Made by a program: the position numbers and the translations under genes. Shown here piece after piece: positions 4,380 through 54,662 of a stretch of DNA of 56,083 nucleotides. Source of the DNA: Elusimicrobiota bacterium (GTDB taxonomy: Bacteria > CG03 > SLGR01 > JBDRKX01); NCBI GenBank assembly GCA_043813605.1, contig JBDRKX010000102.1, positions 1 through 56,083 of the forward strand, written 5' to 3'. Numbering within the stretch: position 1 is the first letter of the stretch; every line of letters starts with the position of its first letter. Below the pieces are notes generated by a model. It saw nothing but the letters and a program-made list of their open reading frames with translations, had not been told where the DNA came from and made no database searches.

Positions 4380-4413
4380 CGCTCTTCTATTCCCCTTTTT
4401 CCTCTTCCGGCAT

Positions 4414-4457
4414 AAAAAAAACCCGCACTCTGCTCATTTTTAAACAAAGTGCGGGTT
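4414..4457 (-). terminator. Conserved hairpin + T8, copy A (intrinsic-terminator-like), between small ORF A and giant 3
   Basis: Minus strand reads AACCCGCACT-(18 nt loop)-AGTGCGGGTT followed by TTTTTT: a perfect 10-bp stem and a T8 run in total. The TAA stop of small ORF A (4440-4442) lies in the loop. The giant 3 ATG is 35 nt downstream of the T run. Confidence 0.7.
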
Positions 4458-4976
4458 AATTCTGCGGGCATACATAGATGCCCACCCGTACATCAAAATT
4501 GGATTCATATCATACTTGTCTGCCAGACATTCGATACACCTATCCCTTGGTGTAACAAATTCAGCCCTCCATCGTAGATAATATTGAATACCAGGCGGGG
4601 CATGGGCATCCTCCTTTGTGAACAGGGACATATCCTTAGCTGCTTGAGACAAAGCACTCAGTATCAGTATCAACAGTAATAACGTCTTTTCATTACAGAC
4701 CAGTACACTGCTTAACAGGAAAAATACAAGGCCGGAATTCTTGTTTCTTTCTCTCTGTTTCCGGGTACTGGATTCTACAGGTACTGCATTCTTTTCAAAC
4801 GGGTTCCTGTTCAGGAAATTGTTGATAACAAGGACTGTTTTCCCCGGGTACGGTATAGCAGTTTTTACAAGTATAAAGCTTTTATTTACCACACCGGGTA
4901 GTTGGACGAGTCCAAAGAAAGAGAAACTCAATATGACTATGGCTATTGCCAAAGATATGACTTTATGTTTAGTCAT
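4440..4976 (-). CDS. Small three-TM membrane protein, paralogue A (unknown family)
   Basis: The ORF track gives 4440..5060, but residues 1-28 (MIINFTYISHIFHTYFTKKYY...) are translated from the 11-bp repeat array. Paralogues B and C start directly at a basic N-terminus plus TM helix, which matches Met29 (ATG at 4976, MTKHKVISLAIAIVILSF). The C-terminus QYYLRWRAEFVTPRDRCIECLADKYDMNPILMYGWASMYARRINPHFV aligns with B. Confidence 0.75.
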   Translation of the reverse strand: MTKHKVISLAIAIVILSFSFFGLVQLPGVVNKSFILVKTAIPYPGKTVLVINNFLNRNPFEKNAVPVESSTRKQRERNKNSGLVFFLLSSVLVCNEKTLLLLILILSALSQAAKDMSLFTKEDAHAPPGIQYYLRWRAEFVTPRDRCIECLADKYDMNPILMYGWASMYARRINPHFV

Positions 4977-5009
4977 AATAGGTCTTATATATATAGTATA
5001 ATACTTTTT

Positions 5010-5053
5010 TGTGAAATATGTGTGAAATATGTGTGAAATATATGTAAAATTAA
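5010..5053 (-). promoter_or_regulatory. Four tandem 11-bp direct repeats (tgtgaaatatg x2, tgtgaaatata, tgtaaaattaa) upstream of small ORF A
   Basis: Exact 11-bp phasing is read directly from the sequence. On the coding strand each unit contains a -35-like TTCACA/TTTACA. The same motif family occurs at 25270-25321, 54229-54250 and 55859-55880. Confidence 0.55.
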
Positions 5054-5059
5054 TTATCA

Positions 5060-8000
5060 TTATGTTGCCGTAAACACTCCTGCCACCTTATTCAGGTTAG
5101 GTATTATCGATTCATCCGGCTCCAACTGACGGCCGGTAAGTATCCTCATATGACGATCCAGAAGGTCGAGTATTGATACCCGGCCGCCGCCCATAAATGC
5201 GGCTGCTGCTACTGCATCCCATCTCTTATTACCGGATAATCCCATTTCTACTATAGTAACCGGCATTGTGACGACAGCTTTTCCGAGTCTGCTTATAGCC
5301 ATCACAAGCTGGCGTACACCGGATTTCAGCTTGAGTTCAAGAGTCTTTTCTTCTGTCACTTCTACCATTCCCGCAGATGTAGGCACATCTTCTATCTGCT
5401 TCTGGCCAAGGAACTTCATATTTATCCTTCCTACTTCTTCTATAATGCGTAAAGCTTTTTCCGGCATTTCCTGGCCTTCAGGCAGATTCATCACCAGGGC
5501 CACAAACTGGCTGATCTCTTCTTCTCCTGCCTTGACCTTGTTAAATGAGAATACGGTATTGAACCAGATAGGCAGCGCTATCGCTTCAATATCTGTCATA
5601 TGAGGCGCCAGTTCTTCCATATAGTCCTCCAAGTATTCAGTTAAATGCAGATTCTGGCTGGAATAACCGGCTATCATGGCCCGGAGTACGTTTACCGTGA
5701 TATTCATGTCTTTTGACCTGTCCAGAAGCTCAATGATCTTCCTGTAAGTAGCCTGGTTTATAGTCAATACACCATCTGCATAAGAGGTCTTTTCTCCTGT
5801 ACGAAGTTCTTCTATGCCCAGTTGTGCGGCCAGCAACGATTTTTCACTGAAGTTTTCGGGTATCCGTTTTACGGAAGATATCAGACGCTGCCAGATATTC
5901 CCGCCTGTTGTCGTGACTGCCGGTTCCCTTGCCGCCATCTCATCCCATTTTACGGCAAAATCACCGGCTGAAGTATCAAAAGCCCGCGTTTTCTCAACCG
6001 AGGCTTCCTGGGCCATCTCATCGACTATCCTCATGGCATCCCGGTCGCTCACGCCCATCTTTACCATATCGTCTACCCAGTTATGATAATCCCTGGTATA
6101 GCTGCCTGTATAACCGTGATATACACCGGCAAATGCGGACAATAAGACCGGCTCATTCACAGTATCACCAGTATATATGCCGCTGAAATTAAATGCCAGC
6201 GTGAAATCATATACGAATTCCGCCCAGTTTTCCGCGGACATATGGAACCGTTCCTGTAAGCGGCCGCTGTCGATCTGCGACATACGGGAAAGCTGGTTAA
6301 AAAGTGCCGGGCGCAGAACCTGTCTGTATACTTCTTCGTAACGGGTAAAATTCTCCTGGAATGCCGTCATACCGGCTTTCCAGTCTCCTATATGGTTGCC
6401 TTCGCTAACTACAGGAAGATCAACGCCTGCCAGCCTGTCCATGGCGGAACCGGTATCAACCGTTCTTGCCGGATCGAATTCAGAAACGACCAGACCGTTA
6501 AATACGATCAATTCAGCCGCTTTACCCGCTATAACCGACAGTATCCCGGCTAAACCTTCTATACTCACAAAATCCTTTTCATCTATATCTACCCGGAGAG
6601 CGACGGCGGCTGACCTGACAAACTCGGTATCATAATCTGTAAATTCCTGTGCATTGAGCCCATCAATATCCTTGAGCATATCGGCGCCCAACTGCCCGTA
6701 TTTTTCCAGTTTAAGTATGATATTGTCTCTCATCACGTTTCCATTACTGTCAAGAAGAGGTATATTGCGTATTTCTTCTATCGCCGCATCTATTTCACCA
6801 GGTGTCATGCGGGTTGAACCAATTTCAGGAATTTTTTCTTCAGGCGCGGCTTCGGCGACAGGAGCAGGCGCTTTTGGCGCTATGTCTTCTATTTCCCGGG
6901 GAGAAATGATCCTGTCTGCAACAGAATCAGTGTTATATGTACTGAAAATATCAAATTGCGGACTGATAAAAAATGAGAATTCATATGGATGTTTGTATTC
7001 TATCGGTTCCTTAGCGTCTACGGTCTGGTATGTTTGGGGAAGTCTCAGCATGCCTATATCCGGAGGCGATTTATTTGTGAAAGTTCTCAACCATTCCGAT
7101 ATAGCTGTATCTACTCCATCTCCTATGATACCTTTCAGCCACACAAGGGCTTCGGGGCTGAGCCTGTAAAGGCGCGATATTATCGAATGTATCGGCCGTT
7201 TATCTTTACCGCTGAATACTTCTTTAACATTATCCAGGGACCTCTCATCCTCGTTCAATCCCCTTAATGCGGTCTGCTGAGGTATTGCCAGCAATATGTT
7301 TACCGGCTGAGAGACTATCTTATCAACATTGGCTTTTCCTATAAAGCCTGCCAGTTGGCTAAACCCGGCTTCTGATACAAGAGCTTTTTCGATCTTGGCT
7401 ATTTTTGAGATATATTTTGCCGAGGTACCTTTAACGACGTAATTATTAAATCTCTTTATATCAGCGTTCTTTATCTCTACTATATATATATTGCCGTCCA
7501 GCTCTATAATAGCGTCTAACTCGACCAGCGGCCCGATATTATCCGTTATTGTAATCCCTGTACTAAGTACCTTTGCACCGATGTTCATCAGGTTATCCAG
7601 GCCCACTAGTTCGGCAAAGAAATTGTTTATATCAGACAGATTTATGGGTTTCCTTTCTTCACTCATGTATTCATTTATTATATTGGCAATCGTGTTTAAA
7701 GTACCTAATACCCCGGGTATTTCGATCGTATTAGCTATCACTTCATGGATATATGGATTTATCTCCAAACCTGTTTGAGTTTTATTAAAAGCGAATACTG
7801 CTCCGAGATTTCCAAGATGTTTAATAAGATCTTCATTGATGGACGGGGTAGTTGCTGCAAGGTTAAAAAATTTGCCTAATACCGGAAGGATCCGCGGGTT
7901 ATCAACAGCCAGATTCAGCGACCTGACTGTCAGCGCCCTGGCAGCATCTGAATCGCTGCTCTTTTCTATTACTTCAATAATAGAGGATATCTGCTGCCGG

Positions 8001-11000
8001 AATCCTGTCCTGTCTTCAGGACTCATACTTGCAAGCAGCGATTCTATAACATCCGCTTTCATACCCATTTCTGCGAGCATCTCAGGTAACCCCATTTCTT
8101 CTTCAGTAACCTCTCTTTTTTCAGATACAACGGGTTCTTCTGCGGGTTTTACCGCTTCTTTTCTTGCCCTATAGTTTCTCCATACCCCTAAAGCAATGAT
8201 TCCGGCTATAACAAGCGCAAACGCTCCTGCTAACCACACATAGTTGCTGTTAACAAAAGTCTGCATCATGGTTATCAGGTTATCCAGGCCGGACGGCTCT
8301 ACGATACTCTGTGCGGCACTGATAACATTTTCAGCAGCATCTCTGACGACGAGATCAAGGTTTTCGGGAACAGCAGCCGTTAACTTCCCAACGACCTGTT
8401 CTTTAAGCGGTTCGGCAACCGGACCGGCAGTATCTATTATTGTCTGAACAGCCTGCTTAACCGGTTCGACAGTCTTCATTAGTAATTCCTGGCCAGGTTG
8501 TATCAGTTCCGGGTTTAAGGCAACTTTAGGATTGTTTGAGATTATCTCTTTTACAAAATTCGCTATCTGCTGGTTCGTAGGACTGTCTATGCCTATTCCC
8601 TCAAGGTACTGCCGCGCTATCCTCCAGAGTGAATTACCCGGCTTTACAACCGCAAGTACCTGTGACCCGCGCATTACTATTTCAGCAGCTACGCTTGTGC
8701 CTACATTGCCGAGAAAAGTCAGTATCCCGGCAAATATCCCCAGTCCGGCTACTACCGCTGGTTTCAGTATACCGGCCTTTTTAACAGGTGCAGTTTCTGC
8801 TGCCGGTTCTGAAACCACTATTCTCCTGTCCTGCATTGTCCTGGCTATCACAGATTTTACAAGCGGATATTTACGATATATAGCATCAAAATATCCCCTG
8901 TGAATAGCAATGATCCTGGCACCTTCGCTCCCTGCCCTGACAGTGGCAGTACGAACGGCATCCTGATTAAGGAGAGCTATTTCACCAAAATAGTCATTCA
9001 GTTCAACATTAGCTACATACTTGTCTTCTCCTGCTTCATCTTTCTTTAGTACCTGTGCTGAACCCTCTACAAGGATATAAATGAAGTCTCCTGTTGTGTT
9101 TTCTTTAATTATGTCCTCTCCGGGCTGGAACGAATCTTCCATAACAAGAGACGCGATCAAAGTCCTTATATTATCAGGCAGGCTCCTGAACAGAGTAGAA
9201 TCAGCTATATGTTTCTGGTTTTTCCATGTATTAAGGAGTATTTTCTTCACATTTTTCGTGAGATCCCCCGGATAAACCGGTGTATACTCAATATTCGTCA
9301 TCGCTATTACGGTAGCGTTTGTTTCAACACCTTTCTCGGATAATGCCGATAGTCCCACAATGTCTCCGGGACCCGCTATAGCAATTTCTTTTCCTGTTTT
9401 TTCATCAATAATGCGGACACTTCCTTTTCTTATGAAAAACGCTTTATTAATAATAGTTTCCTGAGTTATAAGTTTTTCACCTTTATAAGATTTTTCTATT
9501 GATTTTCGTCCGAAAATGCCGCGTTTTCCTTTAAGAAGGTTTCTTATCTGTCTTTTCTGGATAGGATTTAGATAGCCGTTCTCAAGCGCATTTGCCAGCA
9601 CAAGAGAATCTACAGGTGCTTTGCCGTTAAATACCGGATCGCCTATTTTAACGACTTCGCCTACTGATACCGGTTCTAAACCGGTCATCTGCCTGTCATT
9701 CTCATCCTGGTAATGTATGCCCAGCATATTCTTTGTAATATCGTCTGTTGTCCTGCCATAGTGGGCACCTGCGGCTTTTACCAGTTTTGCCACATCCTGA
9801 TGAACCGGATCGCCTTTTTTAGCGTCAATAAAAAGTTTATCCACCCCGACGAAAAGAAAATCTACTATATCAGTCGCTTTTTCTTTCTTAAGGACAACTT
9901 TTTCCTCACCTTTATCGTCAATAGTTATTTCTTCAAGAATACCTGTTTCGGCGTTATATATATCCGATGCCATGACAAAAACACCGCCGCCGACATTTTT
10001 CGGAGCTTCGATCCTTATTGCAGCAGTAGGTATACTGTGTTCCACCATCTGAAGTATCACTTTAGTACCGCCCGGCAACTCAATAGTTTTTCCATCTTCG
10101 TTCATTTCGGCAAATATCACATTCTTTCTGAGGTCCTGACCGGTCATAAGTTTACTCTTTTTTGAAGCCTGCTCGAGTATGGTCTCCATGCTCTTTCTTA
10201 CCATCCCCTGTTCAACTATGACCTGTACGCCTCTCTGCGCGCCCGAAAGCATCCCTTCAATATGGTCCGGATGGTTATGCGATATTATTATGTAATCTAC
10301 GTCAGTAGGCAGGCCGCGCGCCTGAAGCACCCTGTCCGCTTCAGCGTGCGGGTCGATGAGTATCTTTGTCAGGGAACCGTCAGCGTTCCGGATCGCTACA
10401 TACATTGAAGTATTAAGCGCCGCTCCCGTTGTCCTTCCAAACGATCCAACACCTATAGGCACAGCTATCATCCCCTTATCAGGCATAGACACAGGTTCTG
10501 CTTCCCATTCGCCAAGATCGTAGTCAAACGGCCTATTGTCAGACAGGTCAAATGTCTTTTCATTGACTTCTACTTTACCATCATGCATCGTAATAGAAAC
10601 ATTCCGGCCCAGATTAGCGATATCTCCTTCATCTAACACCATAAAATCGACTATATGATGTACGCCGAACGGTTTTCCTTCCCTTAATTCCACAGGACCG
10701 AGGAACATCTCAGCAATGAGCGGCTCAAGTATTGCCCGCTGTTCACTGGTCACTATAAGCGTTATCCTCGGGTCCCGGCGCGGCCATCTGCCTCTCACCC
10801 TGCCGTATTCATCTGTTACTATGTTGCCATCTCCATCCCTATACATGGTCTCATTGAACATAAAGAACGCAGGCCTCGAATCAGGACTTCCTTTTTCTGC
10901 TTTAAAATCTATCGGCCCGAATATGTTCCCGGCGTTCATATCAAACACATGATCGAATATCATGTTCATTATCACCGGGATAAGATTAGTCCCGTCTTCT

Positions 11001-14000
11001 GATAAAAGGTCTTCCTGTACCGCAAGGAAATCCGGTATCTCCATCGCGTTTTCCATCCTGTAGGCCTTGTCATGCCCGCGGTTGATACCTGCCTGGAAAG
11101 TCCATTTATTATTTCCCTTTTTCCAGTTATACCTTAAACGGGTAACATCGAGCAGACTTGAGAGGTACCTTATGCCGGCTATTTCAGGTTCAGTAAGATT
11201 TGGAAGGTCAAGAAGCATGGTATTAAGGAATACGGCAGGTTCAAAACCTTTCTGTATTCCGGAAGAGAGGATATCGTTCCTTCTGAGGAGCGTGCTCTGC
11301 AATGAGGATTGACCCCATTCAGAGAGAGTGAAATCAGGAATACCGGTGGCGCTTTGTAGCGCATCAATAATATCCTGTATAATATGCGCTCTTTCTCTTA
11401 ATTCATTGATATTCTTATAGTTAGCCAGTATGTCTTTATGGTATTTGTCTTCTATACCAAGTTCACTCAGGAACGCTCTCATCTCGTTATCAGGCGTAAC
11501 AGGTTCTTTTTCCTCTTCTTCCCTTCTTCTCCTTAAAGCAGTGATTATCCCTGATATAACTCCTACTGCTCCCGCATCTGACCACTCACCCGGCGCTAAT
11601 GCGTTCCGGATCTCTGACATCGCCTCGTTAAGTATTCCGAGCAGTCTTTCAGCGGCATTGTATTCATACCTGCTGTCTTCATCATTAAGTCCTCTCAACT
11701 TGTCCATTATACCGGTCAATCCGGATCTCACATTATCAAGTAATCCGAACGCATTCTTGTCCGTTTTTGCCAGTTCAATAAGGCTGTTTATGAATATCTG
11801 CCTGTTCTCAAATGAATAATCCTCATCAAGTATCCTTGAAACATGTTCCAGTATACCTACCTGTTCTGTACTCACTGTTACATCACCGTCTTTGGTTATT
11901 GTGGCAAAATGAAGAACTCCTTTTGATGTGAATTCAGTGAAAATAACAGCAGATGTTATAAGCTTCATTCCTTCGCCCGGCTGTCCGCCTGTGCATACCC
12001 TTGCCGCCGCGAACTCAAGGTCATCAACTGACACGCCCATTATCTCGGCAAGATAACCGGCTGCATCGGCCAAAGCGATGACTTTCATCACAACCGTCTC
12101 GGGATCTTCACTCGGATCAACTGTTACCATCCTGGCTACTATTCCGGTATAGTTATTGTCTTTTATATGATCTGTAACAAACTGCTGAACATCAACTTCT
12201 TCTTGTGTACCATAACCTAATGCAGCGAGCTTCTTCATCCAGGTTACTGTCTCAATATAAGCCCTTTCCTCTTCCATAGCTCTTACACGAAGGGTACTAT
12301 GGTCACCCATGATACCTATATTGTAATCTTCTATATGTTTCGCTTCATGAGCCAGTACAAGTATCACATTTGCGGCAAAACTCCTGTCCTGCCTGATGTT
12401 TTCAAGATGGTTTTTACCTATAATTATTATTCCGGCTTCATAGAACGCCATCGCCTGGAAAGGTATATCCAGTATAACAAAATGCTTTGCATGACCGAGC
12501 AGTTCTTGTGCCCGCTCTGGATCGACACTATACATGAATTCGACGATCTCTTTCATCGCTTTCTGTATCTCTTTATCAGCCTGCAGTTTTTCATATTCGG
12601 GTTTGGTCATACCGTTCGTCAGTCCGACAAGCTCGGGCCTTGTCGCCATAAGCTCGTTATATCCCAGCGGGGCGGTTATCTGATTTAATATACTGCCGAT
12701 ACGGGCAGTTGGAGTAATCCCCTTAAATATAGTATTCATCACATCGTCTCTTTCAAGAACTTCCATGTGCGGATCATCGGTTGTCGGAGCAAGATAAACG
12801 ACATTATCACCTAATCCGTTATTAAAGAGCTGCTGATACCGGGCATCCGAATTCGCATCAGGATTGAAGGAATCCCCTCTTATGAATACCTGTTTCAATC
12901 CAGCTATCTTTCCGGCAAACTCGCTTACTGCCTCTTTACTGAAGAGCCTTGTCTGTATCGTACCGTTATAATCCTGGACTGCAGAAACGTTACTGTAATC
13001 CCTGAAACCCAGTGCGGATATGATCTTCATAAGAGCCTGTCTGAATCCGCCGGAAGTGTTTGCGGCGCTCTCGTTTCCGCCGATTGTAGGCGTAAGTTCT
13101 ACTACAGAAGCGTTTCTATAGAGGCCGCTCTCATCGTTCAATACGGCATTTCTTATAACGTTTGTCCCGTACGAATGCAGGACGATAGTCACATTCTCTA
13201 TGCCTTTTGATTCGATGAACGCCGCGAGTTCCCGGTTGAATTTACCCGAGATATCATCGATCGGATTGAGCCAGTAATAACTAAACTCGACTATATTGAC
13301 TCCCAGCGCTCTTGCGGTATCAACTATATGTTTCATAGTCTCAGGAGTATAATCAGATGCGCCGTGAACAAGTATATATGTCGGCTTGGTATTGTCTATT
13401 GTGAATGTATCCGGGGAATCGCTCAGATTGACGACTCTGCCCGAAACAGCCGATACATCAGCAGAAGCTTTTGCCTCTGTTCTTCCGGCTTCGACTTCAA
13501 GATGAGCTACTTCCTTAGAATCAATCCTCTCTGTTCCTTCCATCTCTTCATCATAAAATACTCCCGTCAATGCTTCGAATAGGTTCTCTGACGTGAGTTT
13601 TCCGTCAACCAGGCTCACTTTGGCTTCTTTGAAATTCCCGTTACGGTCATAGACCTTCAATACTCCGTCTTTTATCATTAGGTTGGCCATGAGCATCAGT
13701 TTTTCAAGCAGTATATCGGAACCTATCGCCATAGAAGCGAATCCAAGCGGCTCGGTAGTAAAATACATGAATGTCTCGGCAAAATCCTCGTTATAATTTG
13801 TCTTGGCATAATTGCTGACAAAATCGTTCATATCTTTTGATCTACCGGAGAGTTCTATCCAGGCCTGCTTTTGGGTATCTGTAAGGACATTCCAAAAGAC
13901 ATTATGTCCTATCTCGTGCCTTATGGTGCATTCATAAAATTCATCTTTACTACCAAGGTCCCTGGCAGAGAGCGACCTTATTATCTGGTGTATGTGTACA

Positions 14001-17000
14001 GGAATATGTATTCCGTTATCTTCCACTATATTGCCGTTTGCATCAACTTTTTGAAGCCTTGGCACATAGAGTATCGACCTTAGATCAGATGTATATTCTT
14101 CAGGGAAATTATTGACTATATTCTCAAGACGCATCTTTTCCGATACAGTGGCGTCTATGACTGTTACCTGACTGTCGCCTTTTGAAACCGTATCGAAATA
14201 GAGTCCCGGGTTTGCCAGAAGTTTCATGGGGCCGATAAGGAGCATCGCCGTGATCAGCGTAGGAGCGCCCCATTTGCCTACTCCGGAGATTATGCCGTTA
14301 AACCTTCTTCCAAGTAACGTTACTGTAAGTATTGATAGGACAGCTACGATAGAACCCATAAGAAGCGGCAATCCCACATTAAACATGTCGCTTCCCCTTA
14401 TGGTTGTATCATATATCTCCCACGGCTGTGAGAGGAGGCCTTTATAATAGAGGGTCCTTATCGCAAGCACCAGGTCGCTCGTAAGTAAGGCTGCTATTAT
14501 GGAAGACGCTGCAAAATTAGCCATAAAGATACTCCCGAAACTGTTGAGTATACGGGATATCCGCGAACCTGCAGTGGGCTTTTCGGGAACGGCTGATGGA
14601 GTTTTAAGAGCTGTCTTTTCTATTGTTTCGTATGCGGATGCGATTTCCCGTACAGGCTGTGCTTCTCTTTCTATTGATCGGTCAGTCTCAAACATTTCTG
14701 CTGGAGTTCTAGGTACATTAACAATATCCATTATTAGTCCGCTATTCCAAAGAGCATCGTCATCCCAGCTCAGTATTTTATATTTTATAAATCCAGCTTC
14801 CCGTAATATTATTTCTGATACCGTTACATCCAAAGTCTTTATTGCCGTATTTCCCCTTCTTACATATACACCTTTTATATTGCCGGCACGGCCATATTTA
14901 GCTAACTCAAAAAGCAGTGTTCTTACACTTTCATTGTTTTGTTTATAATTACCGTCATCCTCTCCACGGCTCTCATTAGTCGGAAATATACCTATTTTCT
15001 CAATACTGATATTATCCAGTCTGTTCATGACTTCAGCGATATCGGTTCCAAAATTATCAGGATATACATGCGCTACCGCATACTCGGTTTTTCCTGTATC
15101 CCTGTTCCTGCCCTGTATCACGATTCCGGTGCAGCTCATGAACCCGCCGGAACCGATCGCTTCGTCTTTTTCAAGAGACCCGAAGATCATTTCAGTATTA
15201 AAAACCAGTCCTGACTGATATATGGTCTTTCCATCCCGCTCTTCACTGTTAAGATGAAGTTCGTGCGCCCCGTCTACGATCGAATATGAGGTTAATCTCT
15301 CTTCGGCAAGTATCGAAACCGCCTTTTCGGCTGCGGCTTTCAATTGGGCGACCCTTTCCGATACTATATCGCCCGAAATCTCTTCCAGAAACAGTGTCTT
15401 ATTCTCTACTGTCTGTTTATATTCTTCAGATCTCAGATATTCCGCAAGCGGAATTTCTCCTATCTTACTGTCTTTTACAATGACATTTTTAAGCAACCCG
15501 TCACTGACCGCGATCCTAAGTACTCTCGGAATTTCCGTGCCTACGACTTTGACTGCTTTGAATCTTGATTTACCCCTGTCTGATGCCAGACTTATAAGAG
15601 ATCTAATATAATTTCTTATAATAGAAGCCAGGCGGGCTTTTCCCGGAGCTTGATATGCAAAATAACCGAACAGATCCGACACCTCGAATGTGTCTTCTGT
15701 TTCAGAAAACCGTATTTCCGCCAGTTCTTCTCCTTCAGCATTGAATATAGTGTTATACTGGGGATTATCAGGTGTGGGCGCATACCTGAATCCGAAAGCA
15801 TCTACTTGAGTATTGATTATTTTTTCATGGGCAGTTATTTTTACCAGTGATTCGTATGCATTGATCCTAGAAAGGACATCTTTACCGTGTATTTTCGTTA
15901 AATACCGGGATATCATCCCGTGCTGGAAGGACCTGTCTGTTTCCCCGATGATACTCTTGAGCATATCCTGCGTCATCGCCGGATCGTTAAGCTGGGCAAC
16001 ATGGTTAGGAGTTATCACTGGAACTGCCGAACCGGGAGTGAACCCAAATCTCAGGACCTGTTCCGCTGACGCGAGTATATGCGCTATCTGCTGGATATCT
16101 TCCGGGGTTTCGCCTGAACCTTTGAGCTGTTCCATCCAAAAAGCTTCCCTCGATTCGTGGAATATGGATTCATCCTGGTATCTGGAACCGGTGACTATGA
16201 CTAAATTGCCGCTGCTGTCCCGGAAATTATGCGCCCAGTATCCTTCAGGAAGTTCATTATCATCTACAACAAGTAACCTGGCTGTTATTTCTTCTCCCTT
16301 AATTACCCTTTTTTCGACTCCGGATGCGCGTTCGGCCCACTCTTTTTCCATAGCCCTGGCCTGGGTTAGTTTAGCCGCATCTTCTGCCGTCCGGACTCCT
16401 ATCCTCTTGAGAGCTCCTACTGAAGCTCCGACAGGAACAGGAGGTAATCCAGATATTGGCGCACGGGCTGCAAACACTTCCTTGTCATCAATCTCGACCG
16501 CCCGGGCGACATCGGCATCATCCAGCACCTGTTCCTCTTCTATTTGTTCCACATGGAATATAAGTACTTCTTTTTCTTCAGCACCCTTATGAAAATATAC
16601 GCCGCTTCCTTTTATCCTGACTAATAGCATATCCTGTTGGCCATACCTGGCAATAACTTTATTCCTTAACGGAGTGCCCGAAAAACAACTCTGTTCATTA
16701 GTTATTCCCCTATTCTCGTTTTTCTGAACCAGCCGTTTTGCTATCTCAAATTCCTCTCTGGTCATCACACGATAGATGGTCGGTACATCTCTGGGGCTGT
16801 TTACTATTTTCTCTGCATATATATCATCCCTCAAATTCTTTAAAATATCTTTTCCGGCAAGCTGCTTTGAAGTATACCTCAGTACTCTGAACAGGGGATC
16901 ATTTATTGTTCTAAAGAATAGGTTTTCGATCAGTTGTTCAGTATCCATTGTAACAATTCCACCGGTTACTCCATTTATCCCCGGAACAGCCGCACTCCAC

Positions 17001-20000
17001 TCAGCTTTAAACATACTCGCTAAGTCCAGTCCCAACTGCTGTTTCATTGCAATTATATACTTGATCTTAGGCAGCATGCTGTTCATCATGTCCATATACG
17101 CCTTAAACCTGCTGCCATCGCCTTTCATCATCTGAGATAAGGCCTGCAAGGCATTTATGTTGCCTGTCTCCTGAAACATCTCAAGCAGTTGATCAAAATC
17201 TTTAGGCATATTCCTGGCCCATTTTTCCATATTTTCGTTAATCGAGGTTGCCTTCTGACTTTCTTCAATATGGTATTCGAGAATAGAATTATACTGTATG
17301 CGGTCCATATCCGGGAGTGAAACCATTTCGCGGGATATTATCTTTGCTTTCTTTGCAGGTTTTCCTGTTTTTCCTGACACAAGAGCTTCAAGCAGCTTTT
17401 CTTCTAACCGTATCTCAGAACCGTCTTTAATTACTGATTCCAACTCTCTGAAATTTATTGATGTAATATCAGAGAACCACATCCTGCCTTCTTTCGGATT
17501 AAAACTAAAAAGATCATCTGCACCCTTCTCTGTAGCGCCCGCATCCATGGTATAACTTCCTGCATCACACATAAAGAAGATTGCCGATAGCTCAAAATAA
17601 GCTGCGGCAGCAATTCCGGCCTTTTGTGCGCCTCTTCTGATAATACTAGCCGCCCGGTCAATTTTCCCGCTGTCTTTCAATACAATACCTATAGATTCTC
17701 CGTCAATCAGATTTTCTGCGACAGCTATCTGGGAACTGCTGTAACCGAGTTTTCCAAGCATTTCCCTCATCATTCGGGCTGTCTCTTCGTGTTCATCCGT
17801 ACCCTCGACGAGAGCCTTAGGTTTACCTATATCATGGAGCGCCAGTATAAGACGGAACAGCCCGGTATCTACACCTGCAGGAAATTCCATGCCTCTAAAA
17901 TATTTCTCAAACTGGCCGAGCAGCATCAGAGTATGTCTTTCCAGCGTATTGTCCCAGGTAACCTGCTCCGAGTATAAGGATTCAACTTCCGGAAAAGCCT
18001 CCTTGAGTGCATTGAGCAGTGATTCGGGAGAAAATTCATCCCCTTCAGCTATTCTTCTGACTTTATCTACAGTTGACATCCCGGCCAAAGGCTTCGGCCT
18101 GACAATTTTGACTTTTGCATTGATTACTGCCTGAACGTAATCCTCATAATCTGCGACCATGTTGAACGCGGCTTCCCCGAGATATTGTTTCACCAGGTCA
18201 TGGTGTTTCTGCCTATCCTGCGGCTTTTCTGATATGATAGCCTGCAGCTGTGAGATCTGCATATCATCGACTTGCTGCTGGTGGAACGGTGTAAGACTGT
18301 TTATCCCCCCATACTTGATTACCTGGTCAGCTGAAGCAAGTATATGAGATTGATGTATAATTTCTTTTGCTCCTTTCAATCCTGCTTCTTTCATTAAATA
18401 AGCTGTCCAGGCTGCTTCCTGTTTTTCATGAAAAACGGCTTCCTGAGCGATATCGGATTCGGGAGGAGCACGGGTAACAACAACCAGAACCTTCCTGTTG
18501 CTTTCTGCATCTACTCCTGTAAAACGCAGGGATTCTATTCCTTCGGGAAGATTTCTATCACTTATTACCCTTATTGTAACCGAAAACGTCCGCTGACTAC
18601 CCTCATGACCAACGGTTATCCTGTCTGAGGATTCCGGAGTTCCTTTTGATTCCCTCATCCACCGGGATTGGTTGTTTTTTATCAAGCCGTCCAGTTTTTT
18701 CTCTTCTTCACCGGTACGTCTACCCATAGTTTTCATGGCATTATCTATGTCATCTATATCCCCATCAGGTTTTTTTGAGAGTAAGGTACCCTTATAGTCT
18801 TCGAGCTCTTTGAACATTCCCTGTGATAAACTGATATCATTTATTCTCACATTATTGATCAGTGTGCTTAAATCAGGTGAATCGTCAAGACTTGTCAGCG
18901 CATTTATTAATGCGTCTAAACTCATATCATCTTCAGTATTAAGCTCGGATAAGAACATATGGAGCCTTGACGCCGGGCTATTGTCAAACTGCCTTGCTTT
19001 TCCTGTATCATTTAATATATTTTCAAATATCTTTTTCAAAGGATGATTATCAGGTATCCTGTTTAATTCAAGGGCTTTCTTCAAAACAGCTGTGCCCGGT
19101 ATAACTACCCCGCCAGCTGCTTTTTCAGCTAATTCTTTTACCCCTTGCATACCGCCTGTTTTGTAAGCATCAATCATCTCGCCAACTGTTGTTTCTAATG
19201 CGTCCCCGACAGACCGTACAGGCTTACCTGCTTCTCTGGCAGCTTCTGTCACTCTTAGATCTCTGACTTCTTCGGGAATCTCATCCAACTGACTAATAAT
19301 CTCTTCATCCGGTGTTTCAGACAATATTTCTTCAGCGGATGGTTTTACTAACTGAAGCGCCTTTGCAACCGCGTCTATTGTCTTGGGGCCTGCTCCTTTA
19401 ATAGGGCTGAGCAGCCCGTTCAATTTTTCGAAACTTGACACTTGGTCAGGAGTTGCTCCAATAAGGGCATTAACCACATCATCTTTAACTGTTCTCTTGA
19501 GTGATTTCGGTAGAGCGGCGCGTATATTCTTTTCAAATTGGTCAGATTTTGGCTCCGCTTTCGCCTTATAAACTCCAACTGTCTTTTGAGTCAGCTGATC
19601 CCGCATTCTGCTTAATCTGGAAAGTGCGCCTATAACTTCGTCTCTGGCCTGGTCCATTCTCCTTATATTGGGAACCATGTTCCGGGCCAGATTGAAATTT
19701 TTTCTTGCAGCAGCCAGATCGTCGTTTTCAAGCGCCTGTTCAGCCTGTTCCAACACGGCGTTAACAGTAGTCAGATTATCTATCTGTGTCTGAGTGAGTA
19801 CAGCTTTCGGGGCCTTTTCAGCTTTTGCAACTTCTATCGTCTCTACAGGCACCGGTTTTTCGCCGGCTCTCACCAGTATCCTGTTAAGCCCCGCCAGATC
19901 TCCATAATCCCGGTCATTAACTGCCTTTTTAAAGGTCGATTTCATGAATCCTTCATGAGCTTTACCGCCCGGCAGCGGATATCCTACGGGATCCAGAATC

Positions 20001-23000
20001 ATGAAATTACTACCGTCTTCCGTTATGTATATGTTATCTTCATGAAAATCACCGTGTACAATGCCCGCTTTGTGCATCGCAATAATAACTTCTTTTAGCC
20101 TGTTCAGGAGTTCTTTCGAGAGCGGTTTGTCGTATTCGCCAAGCGGTACTCCGGCAGCTTTTTTCATATAATAGCCTTCTACCTGCCCGTTCTCTCCGTA
20201 TTTAAAGGCCAGTGGTTCCGCTATATGTTCAGGGAACATCTTGTGCATAGCTTTTAAAGCATCAAACTCAGCTACTATATCCCTGTATGAGTTCCCGAAC
20301 CGGAGGGGTGTTGTCCTCATAGCAGCGGACTTAAAAAAGACATCCGGCCTGTTTTCAAGATCAGCTTCATCTATGGGTACTTTAGCCAGCGCTTCTTCCG
20401 TCTTGGTTCTGGTCTCTCTCAATGCCTGCAGTTTTTCCTCGTTTAAACTGATAGTATTCTTTATCCGGTCTATATCAAAAAGCAGTTTTCTCTTAGCCTC
20501 TTCGTTTTCAACGGCTTTTTTATACTCGGCATCCAGTATCTGAACAGCTTTGTCAAAATTGCGTTTCTTGGCGTTTTTCTTGATCGCCCCGATAATATTA
20601 TCAAGCTCGGTTTGAGCTTTCGCATATTCAAGGGTACCCCGTTTATCCTGGGCGGACAGGATAGGACTATTTTTAGCTCTCCAGTACATGATATATAACT
20701 GGATACTATCTTTATTCAATCCGTCTTCAATCGCCTGCACCTTTTCCAATTCTTCCTCAGCTTTTTTAAGTTCTGCCTCGGAGGTTGCTTTTTCATCTGT
20801 GCTGTTCTTTTCATTTATATCGAGTATCCGGTTGATATTTCCATAAAGTCCGGCTGTAGCAAGCCCGTTCTGTTCAGCCAGGTTATACTGCCCGAGTGCT
20901 GCCTCTGTATTTCCCTGCTTCTCCCAGGAACGGCCCGATCCTAAATGTGCGCGCTGCTTTAATGCGTTCTTCAGATTTTTATCAGCAACCTGATCGGCAA
21001 GCTGGATCGCTTCTTCATATTTTTTCCTTGCGTAGAGGTTATCATCATTCTCAAGAAAAGCATCACCTTCGTTGAGGAGTATTCCAGCCGGATTTTCCGG
21101 ATTCTTGATCAATCCGAGTTCTCCTGATATTGCGCTGATAGGTTTTTTTCCCACACCGATACGCTTAAGTATCCGTTCAAGTTCATTATAACTTGTGACA
21201 GTTCTGCCTTTCAGCGCCTGGATAACCTGGGCTTTCATCTTCTGTTTAAGCCCTTTGTTGTCAAGTTTTCCAGCAAGCTCTTTTTCTACCTTTATATCGT
21301 TCATTATCCTGTCGAGCTGTGCAAGGTACCCGTTGATATTCGATTTATTCCACTGTCTTACCGGTTCAAGGAATTTTTCAAGAGGAACATTAAGGTCAAC
21401 CGGGTTCTTGAGATATTCTTCTATTATCGCCTGCCTGATCCTTGCAGGCATCTTCACAAACTCTTCGGCAGCGGCTATGCCGGCAAATATCTCTTCCAGT
21501 TTTTTTATGAACTGACCGGCATTTTCATATTTACCCTGCATGCGGGCGGCCTGATATATATCGTTTATAATAGACTCTATTACTGATTTAGATATACCGG
21601 CATCACCCAGCGCCTTGCGTATCCTGTCCAGTTCGTTCACTACGGCTTTAGGAACAACAGCCGCCTCTTCTGCGGAAGCTACAGAAGGCTCTAACTTTGA
21701 TCTCACAGATGCTACGGTATTATCGGCTGTACCCGCCGGGATCTCCCGGAGCAGTTCCATAAGGTCGTTAAACCTTTCTTCAAGGACCTTTTCCCTTTCA
21801 TTAAGCTGTTTTGATGTCCTTAATGCATTCCAGGCCTGACCCATTCCGTTCATATATCCGGCATTCTTCGACAGGGTTTCGAGTTCCATCACCAGCTTAT
21901 TCAGCCTGTCAGTGTATTCTTTCTCTGAAACCTGTTTAGGAGCTTCCGCTTCTTCCGTAACCGCTTCTTCACGCGCTGCCGCCGGTATCATTGCTGTTTT
22001 CTGGTCATTCTGCCAGATAAAGAAAAGTGATACGGCGCCGAGTATGGCGATCGAACCGGCTACCATAGGGCCGGACAATATTGCAGCTATTACCGCAGCT
22101 ATACTCACCCCGCCGATAGCTATCGCATACCTGTATTTGTTTATCAGTCCGCTCACTCCAAGGCGCGCCTTAGGCCTGCGGGTTGTCTCGGCAGCGGTTT
22201 CAGGTTCAGCTGTAATACCTGCGACTTCTTTACCGGAAACTAACCGGGCAAACTGTTCATGTTCCTGTTCATTCGGCACGTCCGGCAATCCCCGGCCTTC
22301 TCCCTGTGTATGCTGGGCCTGTATCCTGTTCCTGCTGTCCCGGGCCATACTGATTGATATACCGCCCCGGGCGTCAACAACCTCTTTTTCAGTGTACCCT
22401 TCGAGCGCCTTTATGCGCCAGTCGTTGTTCTCTATAAGACTCCTGAGATACCCGTCCAGGTCCTTTTCGAACATGTCAGCGTCTTCCCGTAACAGATAAG
22501 AGTTCTTGAGCTTTTTCAGTGTCTCTTCGGTATTGTATACAAAATGGGTATTGCCGACTGATACCAGTTTCAGAACACCGATCATCTGCCTGTTAAGGCT
22601 TTCGAGCCATCCATTGAATGCCGCGATATCTACCTGACCTTTTTCAGAGGAAACCTGAGCCATGGGATAAAGACCGGTTATAGCCTTTTTAACATTAAGG
22701 AAATTCTTTATCCGGAGACTGAGTTTGTAAGGATTGTTCTTGAGTGTATTTATGCCTGCGGCGACCCTGTTCCATCTTGCCTTGTGTATTATCGCCTTTG
22801 CTTCCTCTTCAGGTACTATCTTGATCTTACCCGAACGGTTTATACCCAGCATAACGAGTTTTCCGGCCAGATTCATGTAAGTGTATGCGTATCCGTCCTG
22901 GAACACCTTGTCTTCCGGGTAGAAATTATACTTTTCTCCCGCTGTCTTTAAACTGATATACCCTTTGCTCCATTCACGGCCAAAAGCCATTACTCTGTCA

Positions 23001-24660: not shown

Positions 24661-24704
24661 AAAAAAAACCCGCACTCTGCTCATCTCTAAACAAAGTGCG
24701 GGTT
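24661..24704 (-). terminator. Conserved hairpin + T8, copy B, between small ORF B and giant 2
   Basis: Same 10-bp stem as copy A (AACCCGCACT / AGTGCGGGTT); the loop differs at 2 nt. The TAG stop of small ORF B (24687-24689) lies in the loop. The T8 run ends only 8 nt before the giant 2 ATG (24652). Confidence 0.7.
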
Positions 24705-25241
24705 AATTACTCGGGCATTAGATGCCCGCCCGTACATCAAAATTGGATTTATATCATACTTATCTGCCAGATTTTGGATACATTTATCCACAGGTGTGAT
24801 AAACTTAAGCCGCCATCTGGAATAATACTGAAAATCATCATCGGGAGGCCTGCACCTCCGTTTCAGATAGTCGGTAAAACTCTTTAAACAAACACTGACT
24901 GCAGCCAGTATCCCTATCAAAAAGACAAGGAACATTGACTCTTTGGAAGCAAAAAGCGCTCCACCCATGATAAGGAAAAGGAAATTGAATATTTTTCTCG
25001 AATCCTTATCGTTTGAATCTCCCGCTCTATTACTCGTTTCCTGTACACTGCCGGTAGCGGCTCCTTTGACACATCCATTGACTTCCATAACAGCGATCGA
25101 CGGATAATTCAGCGCGGTTTTCAGCAGTGAAACCGCTCCGGTAATGTTCTTCTGGATCTGAAAAGTCCCCAGAGAGGTGAAAGACAGTATTACCAATACA
25201 GTCAGTATCGACAGTATTTGTCTTTTGTTAGAGTTTTTCAT
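24687..25241 (-). CDS. Small three-TM membrane protein, paralogue B
   Basis: 184 aa with an N-terminal TM (ILSILTVLVILSFTSLG) and two central TMs. Conserved tail: QYYSRWRLKFITPVDKCIQNLADKYDINPILMYGRASNARVINPHFV. Confidence 0.8.
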   Translation of the reverse strand: MKNSNKRQILSILTVLVILSFTSLGTFQIQKNITGAVSLLKTALNYPSIAVMEVNGCVKGAATGSVQETSNRAGDSNDKDSRKIFNFLFLIMGGALFASKESMFLVFLIGILAAVSVCLKSFTDYLKRRCRPPDDDFQYYSRWRLKFITPVDKCIQNLADKYDINPILMYGRASNARVINPHFV

Positions 25242-53513: not shown

Positions 53514-54158
53514 TTATACCGCCTTTGTGTATAACTTACTTTCTTCTATACTCATAAAAAAAACCCGCATTCCGAATACTTCATTCAAAATGCGGGTTCC
53601 TTTCCCCCGAAAACCTTTTACGCGCGCTATATCAAATTCGTTTACACGGCTTTTCAGATACCTGTCCCATGGCGTCAAAAACTTCAGTATCCAGCTCGTG
53701 TAATACATTATGCCGGCCCGTATACGGCCCGGCATATAACAATCCCTGTCATATGCCTTTTTCCGTATAAGCGTTGTGCCGAAAGTAAAGACTGCAACCA
53801 TAAGAAGAAAAAACAGCTCCCTGTTCGTCATCAGCACTGCACTCAGTACGTAGTAGAGATGCCCGAACAATCCCCTGCCGGCCTTTTTCCTGACAGGTAC
53901 CGATTTGGTATTTGATTTTTCTTCTTCAGAACTTATCTTTACTTCTCTAAAAAATTCTTCAGATTCAGTAAAAATCGTCAGGTACGGAAACAGTATCTTT
54001 GTTTTAAAAAAAGAAACTGTGCATTCTATCATGTCAAATTGTATAGCAGCAACAGTTTCTATTGTTTCGGATATCTGGAAAGTGCTCATAAAAGTACAGA
54101 GACATATTGTAATAATTATGAGATGTGATATTAACTTTATTTTAATTAAATTACGCAT
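53514..54158 (-). CDS. Small three-TM membrane protein, paralogue C
   Basis: 214 aa with N-terminal TM LISHLIIITICLCTFMSTF and central TMs. Conserved motif: MYYTSWILKFLTPWDRYLKSRVNEFD. The TAA stop lies 3 nt before the giant 1 ATG. The ORF reads through hairpin copy C. Confidence 0.75.
   Translation of the reverse strand: MRNLIKIKLISHLIIITICLCTFMSTFQISETIETVAAIQFDMIECTVSFFKTKILFPYLTIFTESEEFFREVKISSEEEKSNTKSVPVRKKAGRGLFGHLYYVLSAVLMTNRELFFLLMVAVFTFGTTLIRKKAYDRDCYMPGRIRAGIMYYTSWILKFLTPWDRYLKSRVNEFDIARVKGFRGKGTRILNEVFGMRVFFMSIEESKLYTKAV
53556..53598 (-). terminator. Conserved hairpin + T8, copy C, 46 nt upstream of the giant 1 ATG and inside small ORF C
   Basis: Minus strand reads AACCCGCAT-(19 nt)-ATGCGGGTT followed by TTTTTT: a 9-bp stem whose closing end differs from the A/B stem on both arms while pairing is kept. 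It is translated as ...TRILNEVFGMRVFFM... in ORF C. Confidence 0.5.
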
Positions 54159-54251: not shown

Positions 54252-54662
54252 TCAGTTTACCAATGGGTTAAAACTCGTGTTTTCGTCATAGTTGTCTTCT
54301 ATAAGGGACCTCAGATTCATGAGTGAAAAAGGTTTTACTATATATTCTTTAGCACCAAGAAGAAAAGCTTCATTAAGGCTCTTTTTCTCATCGACTACAG
54401 TTAATATGAAGATAGGAATATCTTTTGTACTGTAATCACTTTTAAGTTTTTTCAGGATCTCGAATCCCGTCATTCCAGGCATGTTAAGATCAAGAGTTAT
54501 TATTGAGGGCTTACATCTGAAGGCCTTGTCTATCCCGTCTTTTCCAGTTGTCGCTATTTCAACTTCGTACCCTTTCAGTTCAAGGCCGTCTTTTATCATC
54601 TCGGCAATATAAATGTCGTCATCAATTACCAAGACTTTTCTTTTTGCGCTTTTTGCGCACAT
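54252..54662 (-). CDS. Stand-alone response-regulator receiver (CheY-like) protein
   Basis: KVLVIDDDIYIAEMI...PSIITLDLNMPGMTGFEIL...IPIFILTVVDEK...GAKEYIVKPF: the acidic pocket DD, the phospho-acceptor Asp, and the conserved Thr and Lys are all present. There is no output domain (136 aa). Confidence 0.9.
   Translation of the reverse strand: MCAKSAKRKVLVIDDDIYIAEMIKDGLELKGYEVEIATTGKDGIDKAFRCKPSIITLDLNMPGMTGFEILKKLKSDYSTKDIPIFILTVVDEKKSLNEAFLLGAKEYIVKPFSLMNLRSLIEDNYDENTSFNPLVN

Follow-up and report, generated by a model that had tools for sequence, protein, structure and literature searches.

A predicted giant membrane protein from Elusimicrobiota carries unrelated enzyme-like modules between a conserved head and tail

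Giant multi-enzyme membrane proteins are among the least understood features of uncultivated bacteria and are known mainly as catalogues of open reading frames (ORFs) of 10–147 thousand amino acids (kaa). As described in two preprints, the giants of Omnitrophota combine many transmembrane (TM) helices with a tiling of unrelated, divergent enzyme domains, and some members contain C39 peptidase domains (10.1101/2023.11.21.568195; 10.64898/2026.06.07.730766). In the more recent catalogue, by Nielsen and Lui, 94% of the class 1 "multi-enzyme" proteins possess a TM segment or signal peptide, and TM-only proteins form the largest single class (46%; 10.64898/2026.06.07.730766). Here we analyse contig JBDRKX010000102.1 of an Elusimicrobiota bacterium, taken whole as our window (56,083 bp). 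Three minus-strand giant genes fill this contig almost completely; of the remaining genes, one encodes a response regulator, one a 371-residue protein and three small TM proteins. Our subject is Giant 2, which belongs with the giant multi-enzyme membrane proteins and not with MARTX-type toxins.

5060..24652, minus strand: Giant 2 ORF, 6,530 residues
25539..53510, minus strand: Giant 1, 9,323 residues
3..4379, minus strand: Giant 3, at least 1,459 residues, truncated by the left contig end

How does Giant 2 compare with the Omnitrophota giants? It resembles the class 1 proteins of Nielsen and Lui and the Archaeovorin-type proteins of West-Roberts et al. (10.1101/2023.11.21.568195) in that its ORF is tiled by at least seven supported unrelated domain types, none of which is dominant. 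As in the Omnitrophota proteins, its TM helices are spread along the chain and make up a few percent of the residues, its domains are strongly diverged, C39-like domains occur (here in the neighbouring giant gene), and P0053, a relative by its head domain, bears the annotation Candidatus Omnitrophota. Four differences emerge: (i) Giant 2 and Giant 1, at 6,530 and 9,323 residues, lie under the 10-kaa and 30-kaa cutoffs of the catalogues; (ii) the relatives of Giant 2 are mostly Elusimicrobiota metagenome-assembled genomes (MAGs); (iii) its contig holds no type II secretion or pilus genes, and SecA_DEAD is undetected; and (iv) where the Omnitrophota proteins bear sugar-metabolism and His-kinase domains, Giant 2 bears two zincins, a lipase-like hydrolase, a metallo-beta-lactamase (MBL) fold, a tandem of cyclic nucleotide monophosphate (cNMP)-binding domains and a LysM. 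A head/tail/partner signature, Elusimicrobia relatives, TIKI, cNMP and lactamase were not met in the available text of either preprint. What is new here is a conserved head with a TM hairpin, a tail of ~280 residues, a three-TM partner encoded upstream, and a module content and order that vary between relatives. Giant 2 is also more tractable: 6.5 kaa can be dissected, most of its catalytic centres are conserved, and the head/tail/partner signature can be searched for.

The original prediction for this locus proposed that one ORF strings together nine unrelated domains with TM clusters between them, and it spoke of a different, unexplored logic. The phenomenon as such is already described in the Omnitrophota preprints, as yet without an explanation. 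The predicted span (8866-20345) corresponds to residues ~1436-5262 of Giant 2 only. A motif search of the translation located every listed motif as claimed, and three of the patterns exceed chance expectation: HExxH occurs twice (0.11 expected), HxHxDH once (0.001 expected) and HGDxxxxN once (0.02 expected). Of the nine calls, seven find at least some support, whereas the HD call is weak and the R-S-E ART call unsupported. One ORF does join unrelated, catalytically intact-looking enzyme domains separated by TM segments. When the catalytic residues of zincin-1, the alpha/beta-hydrolase and zincin-2 were followed across homologues, they were found to be conserved in all three, so that the loss of conservation named in the original prediction as its refutation was not seen for these domains. 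On balance, we lean towards Giant 2 being a membrane-anchored mosaic platform in which enzyme cargo has been shuffled between a fixed head and tail, probably with activities on both membrane faces.

One part of this cargo is a block with a hydrolase between two zincins:

13616..14128, minus strand: predicted zincin-1 metallopeptidase domain (residues 3509-3679), HEIGH...EDFAE
12716..13438, minus strand: predicted lipase-like alpha/beta-hydrolase (residues 3739-3979), triad S3827, D3927, H3962
11603..12700, minus strand: predicted zincin-2 module with HEAKH (residues 3985-4350)

An exhaustive HMMER search with residues 3490-4689 recovered 163 proteins that represent three separate domain families; a metagenome scan with residues 3490-4300 found no relatives. 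The HEIGH...EDFAETF and HEAKH motifs had been read as zincin signatures, and this reading held, with the HExxH and downstream Glu residues kept in 92-95 of 95 and in 23-25 of 25-26 aligned sequences, respectively. In zincin-1 (HEIGH at residue 3579, EDFAETF at residue 3622), aligned with 94 homologous domains, H3579 is present in 95 sequences, E3580 in 94, H3583 in 93 and E3622 in 92; its Pfam scores are 24.5 bits for ATLF (cutoff 27.4) and 22 bits for Peptidase_Mx. Zincin-2 (HEAKH at residue 4102) is met again in 13 other large proteins, frequently as tandem copies, and 24 copies from these were aligned; it faintly matches DUF6782, a putative metallopeptidase family (E 0.07). Its conservation is 24/25 for H4102, 24/25 for E4103, 23/25 for H4106, 25/26 for E4128 and 26/26 for D4165. 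The conservation of HExxH and a downstream Glu across each family strongly suggests that both are gluzincin-type metallopeptidases.

The HSYGT motif between them (residue 3826, its Ser being S3827) had been taken for a lipase-like nucleophile elbow, and this reading is supported. All of 33 sequences keep S3827 and D3927, and at least 90% of them keep H3962. Giant 2's own copy is claimed by no Pfam family; other members weakly match Abhydrolase_6, Lipase_2, PGAP1 and LCAT. An AlphaFold2 (AF2) model built on the 33-sequence alignment reached a pLDDT of 86 and a pTM of 0.82, and a Foldseek search of the PDB with this model returned 301 matches at E <= 0.001 (best E 4e-8). The best 50 of these 301 are nearly all alpha/beta-hydrolases, with lipases, palmitoyl-protein thioesterase-2 and phospholipase PlaB at the top. 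The model thus strongly supports an alpha/beta-hydrolase fold. Many of the free-standing homologues carry lipobox-like leaders.

A further catalytic centre with a predicted sensor next to it follows further along the chain:

9683..10435, minus strand: predicted metallo-beta-lactamase-fold domain (residues ~4740-4990), HNHPDH
8783..9484, minus strand: predicted tandem cNMP-binding domains CNB-A (residues ~5057-5165) and CNB-B (residues ~5174-5290)
9158-9484, minus strand: CNB-A, degenerate cassette
8783-9133, minus strand: CNB-B, canonical FGEIALL...RTATV

In a Pfam scan of whole Giant 2, only the cNMP-binding tandem passed its cutoff; domain-sized pieces gave further matches. Scanned alone, the MBL domain reaches 30.4 bits with Lactamase_B_2 (cutoff 27) and 26.0 bits with Lactamase_B (cutoff 22.7) and so passes both; it contains the predicted HNHPDH motif (residue 4792) and the downstream His/Asp motifs of the fold. 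The metallo-beta-lactamase assignment is a strong one on these scores; a faint match to the Apyc1 family of cyclic-nucleotide phosphodiesterases (E 0.006) was seen as well. PF00027 matches the tandem in two stretches (E 2.8e-25, 88.5 bits against 27.5), with phosphate-binding cassettes at residues 5100 and 5223, and the best PDB matches are the regulatory domains of PKG and PKA-R (E 1e-19). Both predicted cNMP-binding domains are therefore matched by Pfam, but CNB-A lacks the cassette Glu and Arg (GLSAL...TNATV), which strongly points to a tandem of one canonical and one degenerate domain. Two consecutive cNMP-binding domains are also the arrangement of PKA-R and PKG; in Giant 2 what adjoins the tandem is an MBL-fold hydrolase, not the catalytic domain of a Ser/Thr kinase, and the first copy is the one without Glu and Arg.

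Ahead of the zincins, assignments are less firm:

19853..20344, minus strand: putative atypical protein-kinase-like domain (residues ~1437-1600), HGDFHEDN and ILDP
18113..18745, minus strand: module A copy 1 (residues ~1970-2180)
17558..17950, minus strand: candidate HD-like region (residues ~2235-2365), H...HD...D pattern
16493..17230, minus strand: conserved domain holding the "R-S-E ART" motifs (residues 2475-2720)
15818..16420, minus strand: module A copy 2 (residues ~2745-2945)

The kinase-like domain (HGDFHEDN at residue 1533) scores under every Pfam cutoff (RIO1 21.3 bits against 22, Kdo 19.2, APH 19.0, Pkinase E 0.029); in NCBIfam it matches the kinase part of LanKC (E 4e-6) and Bud32 (E 2e-4). 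No glycine-rich loop was seen in it. Its one homologue, in the large protein P0002, is 32% identical and keeps HGD..N and the metal-binding Asp (IDP), and this region of P0002 itself matches Pkinase (E 5e-7, 29.8 bits against 31.7). The predicted kinase-like loop is therefore kept in the homologue, but with profile scores just short of their cutoffs, and the evidence for a RIO/Kdo-like kinase domain is good but sub-threshold. The HD prediction fared less well: the H...HD...D pattern is present (HDIGK at residue 2273), but Pfam HD is matched at 16 bits only (E 0.015, cutoff 22), so that the assignment stays weak. The domain at residues 2475-2720 is 30% identical to residues 3827-4079 of P0002. 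The R-S-E ART proposed for it is not supported: no profile matches, and P0002, the only homologue, has Ser for the Arg of YR and EDQ for EKE, so that neither the Arg nor the second Glu is kept.

Module A, of ~200 residues, is duplicated in Giant 2, with LPEG, FHExxEAxW and HILASAxQV in both copies and a Smith-Waterman score between them of 198, against 34 +/- 5 for shuffled sequences. A single-sequence AF2 model of residues 2200-3360, which cover the HD-like region, the ART region, the second module A and a Cys/His region, reached a pLDDT of 35, too low to judge folds. A single-sequence search of the PDB with the first 3,400 residues of Giant 2 gave no match, and jackhmmer runs that compared every unassigned segment with all the large proteins retrieved left residues 883-1400, 1700-2480 and 2740-3370 without a relative. 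A Cys...His pair in GSGGFMSCTGIVIQG...AVAHVYP (residues ~3215-3250, window 14950-15050) may resemble that of CheD-type deamidases; no profile supports a CheD-type domain there, and this candidate was dropped.

Two further modules were defined by their recurrence in relatives:

11243..11536, minus strand: recurrent domain of ~90 residues, possible adaptor (residues 4373-4470), found by jackhmmer
6818..8122, minus strand: nuclease-like module (residues 5511-5945), no Pfam match

The ~90-residue domain occurs twice in P0070, twice in locus L002 and once in P0002, and may be a linker or adaptor. The module at residues 5511-5945 is 36% identical to residues 1640-2019 of P0006, where its motif E-[LI]-D-A-I...Y-I-V-E-x-K-N (E-L-D-A-I...Y-I-V-E-I-K in Giant 2) is kept; this motif resembles those of PD-(D/E)xK nucleases.

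This cargo lies between two conserved ends and is interrupted by predicted membrane segments:

24578..24634, minus strand: N-terminal hydrophobic segment, signal peptide or signal anchor (residues 7-25), from a hydropathy scan
23153..24520, minus strand: head domain (residues ~45-500), from a 12-sequence alignment
2880-4245, minus strand: copy of the head domain in Giant 3, conserved with Giant 2
22007..22126, minus strand: bilobed predicted TM hairpin closing the head module (residues 843-882), also in Giant 3, P0002 and P0006
14213..14539, minus strand: predicted TM cluster of two strong helices and one weak (residues 3372-3480), from a hydropathy scan
8183..8770, minus strand: predicted TM (residues 5295-5317), LysM-like loop (residues 5335-5390) and predicted TM (residues 5472-5490)
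5063..5905, minus strand: C-terminal tail module (residues 6250-6530), ALPxWF motif and terminal I-x-P-N-L-N...AT
25542-26330, minus strand: copy of the tail in Giant 1, shared with Giant 2

The N-terminal ~890 residues consist of the leader, a domain of ~450 residues, a linker and the TM hairpin. The leader is followed by Y-[AT]-[YH]-A, a conserved motif similar to AxA cleavage sites. Over 942 residues, the head modules of Giants 2 and 3 are 36% identical, and the Giant 2 head is 36-45% identical to those of Giant 3, P0002, P0006, L001, L002, L014 and L015. Invariant across the 12-sequence alignment are LIQDLH (D69, H71), E99, R432 and GGFH. PF04187, of the ChaN/TIKI superfamily, is weakly matched by three of the 12 head members (best E 2.3e-4), so that the head possibly belongs to the TIKI/TraB/ChaN/erythromycin-esterase superfamily. 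In Elusimicrobiota MAGs the head domain starts large ORFs and also occurs in stand-alone proteins of ~620-670 residues. The tail (~280 residues) is common to Giant 2 and to the C-termini of Giant 1, P0002, P0006 and P0070, at 30-36% identity; its extreme C-terminus is conserved as I.PNLN..G...AT, and the module may act as a signal for sorting or docking.

Head-bearing relatives come mostly from one phylum. The head domain was seen at 13 genome loci, 12 of them in Elusimicrobia/Elusimicrobiota MAGs, and the named protein relatives are Elusimicrobiota (P0070, P0029) apart from the one assigned to Candidatus Omnitrophota (P0053). At the level of sequence, these relatives were found to keep head and tail but to carry other modules, or the same modules in another order. 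P0002 reads head – kinase – zincin-2 – (5524-like) – (2475-like) – tail and has a GGDEF domain in addition, against head – kinase – 2475 – zincin-2 – 5524 – tail in Giant 2. P0006 contains zincin-1, zincin-2 and the 5511-5945 module, and elsewhere the cargo includes HD, topoisomerase IB and HhH domains (L002), a nucleotidyltransferase and ROK (L001), or AAA+ (P0029). In both P0002 and P0003 the zincin-2 module is flanked by TM clusters. If general, module shuffling between fixed termini would be an evolutionary rule for the assembly of giant proteins, and the tail together with the small TM partner would offer a handle on their targeting.

On which side of the membrane would these modules lie? 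The TM segments were called by hydropathy scan only, which gives 8-10 hydrophobic helices in five clusters, at residues 7-25, 843-882, 3372-3480, 5295-5317 and 5472-5490, bearing out the TM clusters predicted between domains. No strong TM was called at residues 3481-5294. The loop between the last two TMs matches LysM at 18.9 bits in Pfam (cutoff 20.9). Five Lys/Arg follow the TM at residues 5472-5490 and none precede it, suggesting that the C-terminal side of this TM is cytoplasmic. By this pattern, we infer that the LysM loop would lie outside and that the MBL and cNMP domains, like the last ~1,000 residues, would lie inside. The protease-lipase-protease block (residues 3481-4350) may face outward, or everything but the LysM loop may be cytoplasmic. 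Published surveys of giant proteins meet a similar topology ambiguity (10.1101/2023.11.21.568195; 10.64898/2026.06.07.730766).

How would a mosaic platform of this kind work? Between head and tail, the kinase, two copies of module A, the HD-like region, two zincins, the hydrolase, the MBL, the cNMP tandem, the LysM and the nuclease-like module have been brought together by shuffling. TM segments would thread the chain so that the kinase, HD, MBL and cNMP sensor lie on the cytoplasmic face. The LysM loop would face the envelope, and the protease/lipase block (residues 3481-4350) may do so too, as many free-standing homologues of its hydrolase look like lipoproteins. On this reading, Giant 2 would be a platform tethered to the membrane that brings hydrolytic and regulatory activities together, and cNMP binding to CNB-B might modulate the adjacent MBL-fold hydrolase or the whole assembly.

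Several observations weigh against this mechanism. The proposed coupling of MBL and cNMP domains is drawn only from their adjacency. No homologues of the HD-like region were detectable, and module A has neither a Pfam match nor homologues elsewhere. The TIKI assignment of the head comes from the three weak Pfam matches among 12 members, and a profile search of the PDB with the head domain gave no match. As to topology, the 3372-3480 cluster has a weak third helix, and a hydrophobic stretch of 13-17 residues at 4357-4373, followed by RRRR and lying where P0002 and P0003 carry TM hairpins, is ambiguous, so that the protease/lipase block may lie on either side. The charge pattern at the 843-882 hairpin, moreover, conflicts with an outward head unless a weak TM at residues ~508-527 is real.

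Alternatively, Giant 2 could be a secreted or delivered effector polyprotein akin to MARTX toxins, the hairpins of which insert into a host or prey membrane while proteases free the enzymes into the target cell. We consider this rather unlikely. Candidates for the releasing proteases are the zincins of the chain itself, its possibly TIKI-like head and the C39 domains in Giant 1. Unrelated effector-type enzymes do stand between conserved termini in Giant 2, with a cargo that varies between relatives as in polymorphic toxins and MARTX, Peptidase_C39-like domains (E 3e-19) occur in the adjacent Giant 1, a secretion signal could lie in the invariant extreme C-terminus, and the bilobed hydrophobic hairpins of 40 residues may resemble those of secreted membrane-inserting effectors. 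The possible TIKI-superfamily domain in the head is one more likeness, RRSP, a TIKI-fold effector protease of MARTX toxins, being a member of that superfamily (PMC6254334). As a claim of membership, the MARTX likeness raised in the original prediction was rejected, and it survives as an analogy only. In Pfam and NCBIfam scans of the whole protein and its segments, Giant 2 showed no A/B/C glycine-rich RTX repeats, and the same two libraries revealed no inositol-hexakisphosphate-activated cysteine protease domain (Peptidase_C80/CPD); the 56-kb contig has no type I secretion system (T1SS) operon and no T3SS or other secretion genes. At least eight TM segments over 6.5 kaa are hard to square with export. 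The TM helices, the LysM loop with its positive-inside pattern and the cNMP sensors suit the producer's own membrane, and the cNMP, kinase and HD modules are of a kind typical of regulation in the cytoplasm.

A comparison with polymorphic toxin systems leads in the same direction. Giant 2 shares with them a conserved trafficking-type N-terminus, a variable enzymatic payload, an ever-present small adjacent gene and module exchange (PMC3482391). It differs in that its variable part is central and made of many modules instead of one C-terminal toxin, its C-terminus is conserved, its small gene, located upstream, codes for a three-TM product instead of a cytoplasmic immunity protein, and Rhs, filamentous haemagglutinin or other delivery repeats are absent from Giant 2. 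Classical membership was set aside on the central, multi-modular variable part and the conserved C-terminus.

Somewhat less probable still is a wholly cytoplasmic, membrane-tethered scaffold, in which the TMs would be paired anchoring hairpins, as in the "TM-only" architecture of Nielsen and Lui. Such anchors would fit the 843-882 hairpin, which is flanked by positive charge on both sides in Giant 2 as in Giant 3, the hairpin-like pair at residues 3372-3448, and the absence of a strong TM at residues 3481-5294, the last part of which consists of MBL and cNMP domains of a cytoplasmic type. TM-only is also the most frequent class (46%) in the Omnitrophota catalogue. A fully cytoplasmic chain would have to accommodate the LysM-like loop between two TMs, which implies at least one exposed segment, the AxA-like site in the leader and the bracketing of zincin-2 by TM clusters in P0002 and P0003. 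Moreover, zincin-1 and the hydrolase have free-standing homologues that are small proteins, and the lipoprotein-type leaders on many of the hydrolase homologues imply an extracytoplasmic workplace.

Could the domains be degenerate and purely structural, that is, pseudoenzymes serving a large scaffold for spacing or binding? The loss of the cassette Glu and Arg in CNB-A, the unconserved ART-like motif, the sub-cutoff Pfam scores of HD, kinase and zincin-1, and the Leu that takes the place of the usual small residue in the nucleophile elbow LHSYG would all fit. We nevertheless judge this improbable: the catalytic residues of zincin-1, zincin-2 and the hydrolase are present and nearly invariant across homologues, the MBL has its full HxHxDH and downstream His/Asp motifs, the kinase homologue, at an overall identity of 32%, still has the catalytic loop and the metal-binding Asp, and CNB-B is canonical. 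An artefact, either a chimeric assembly or genes fused by sequencing errors, might be suspected for a metagenome-derived contig whose giant ORF clusters with no other protein of the collection, but is very improbable given a frame that stays open over 19.6 kb at 44% GC, a GC skew that is uniform along the window, independent contigs that carry the same head, tail and several internal modules, and neighbouring genes tightly coupled by a 1-nt stop/start overlap.

Each giant in the window is preceded by a paralogous small gene:

53514..54158, minus strand: s1, partner, 214 residues, upstream of Giant 1
24687..25241, minus strand: s2, predicted three-TM partner, 184 residues, directly upstream of Giant 2
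4440..5060, minus strand: s3, partner, 206 residues, upstream of Giant 3

The stop codon of Giant 2 (TAA) and the start codon of s3 (ATG) overlap by one base (window 5058-5062), and the gaps from s1 to Giant 1 and from s2 to Giant 2 are 3 bp and 35 bp. The overlap and the short gaps suggest that s-genes and giants form a single operon with translational coupling. Homologues of the s-proteins lie directly upstream of head-bearing giants in four other loci (L001:1671-2291; L002, with two copies, 8762-9343 and 9429-9911; L014:1660-2211; L015:752-1339). Family members have ~160-215 residues, three TMs and the C-terminal motif YY.RW..F.TP.D.C...LADKYD.NPILMYG...INPHFV; none has a Pfam match, and a protein search with the small TM protein recovered only itself. 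A tentative extension, to which we attach a low probability, is that head, tail and three-TM partner make up an undescribed cassette system of Elusimicrobiota and some Omnitrophota for building, inserting or exporting modular giants. Cargo would be swapped between a protease-like head and a recognition tail, the partner would serve as insertase, chaperone or gate, and a CheY-type regulator would control expression. If true, this would be a new route to make and deliver polymorphic multi-enzyme effectors.

Two more genes stand ahead of s1:

54252-54662, minus strand: CheY-like single-domain response regulator
54694-55809, minus strand: repeat protein of 371 residues

A CheY-like regulator also precedes the s-protein and giant cassette on two unrelated metagenome contigs, L014 (64-1570 region) and L015 (271-636), and a homologue (~375 residues) of the 371-residue repeat protein was seen only in L014. 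An Rfam scan of the window gave zero matches, an exact-sequence look-up of two window proteins found no record, and the window contains no phylogenetic marker gene. Long plus-strand ORFs within the giants (for example 874-1563, 1759-2226, 45718-46515 and 50558-51298) are Ser/Thr/Ala-rich antisense read-throughs and unlikely to be real genes.

In Giant 1, Pfam matches Peptidase_C39 in two stretches (E 3e-19), and about four such repeats can be made out by eye; Giant 2 has no Peptidase_C39. Giant 1 also contains the ATPase motifs GGKT/DEAD, with only a weak Helicase_C match (E 0.02), and SecA_DEAD was undetected in it. No tandem repeats were found in Giant 2. In Giant 1, an Ala/Asp-rich low-complexity tract (50629-51200, GC 55%) contains imperfect tandem repeats of 21-72 bp. 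Giant 1 also shows YD-like beta-rich repeats, a repeat of ~198 bp at 34905-35435 and an RNA_pol_A_CTD-like HhH domain.

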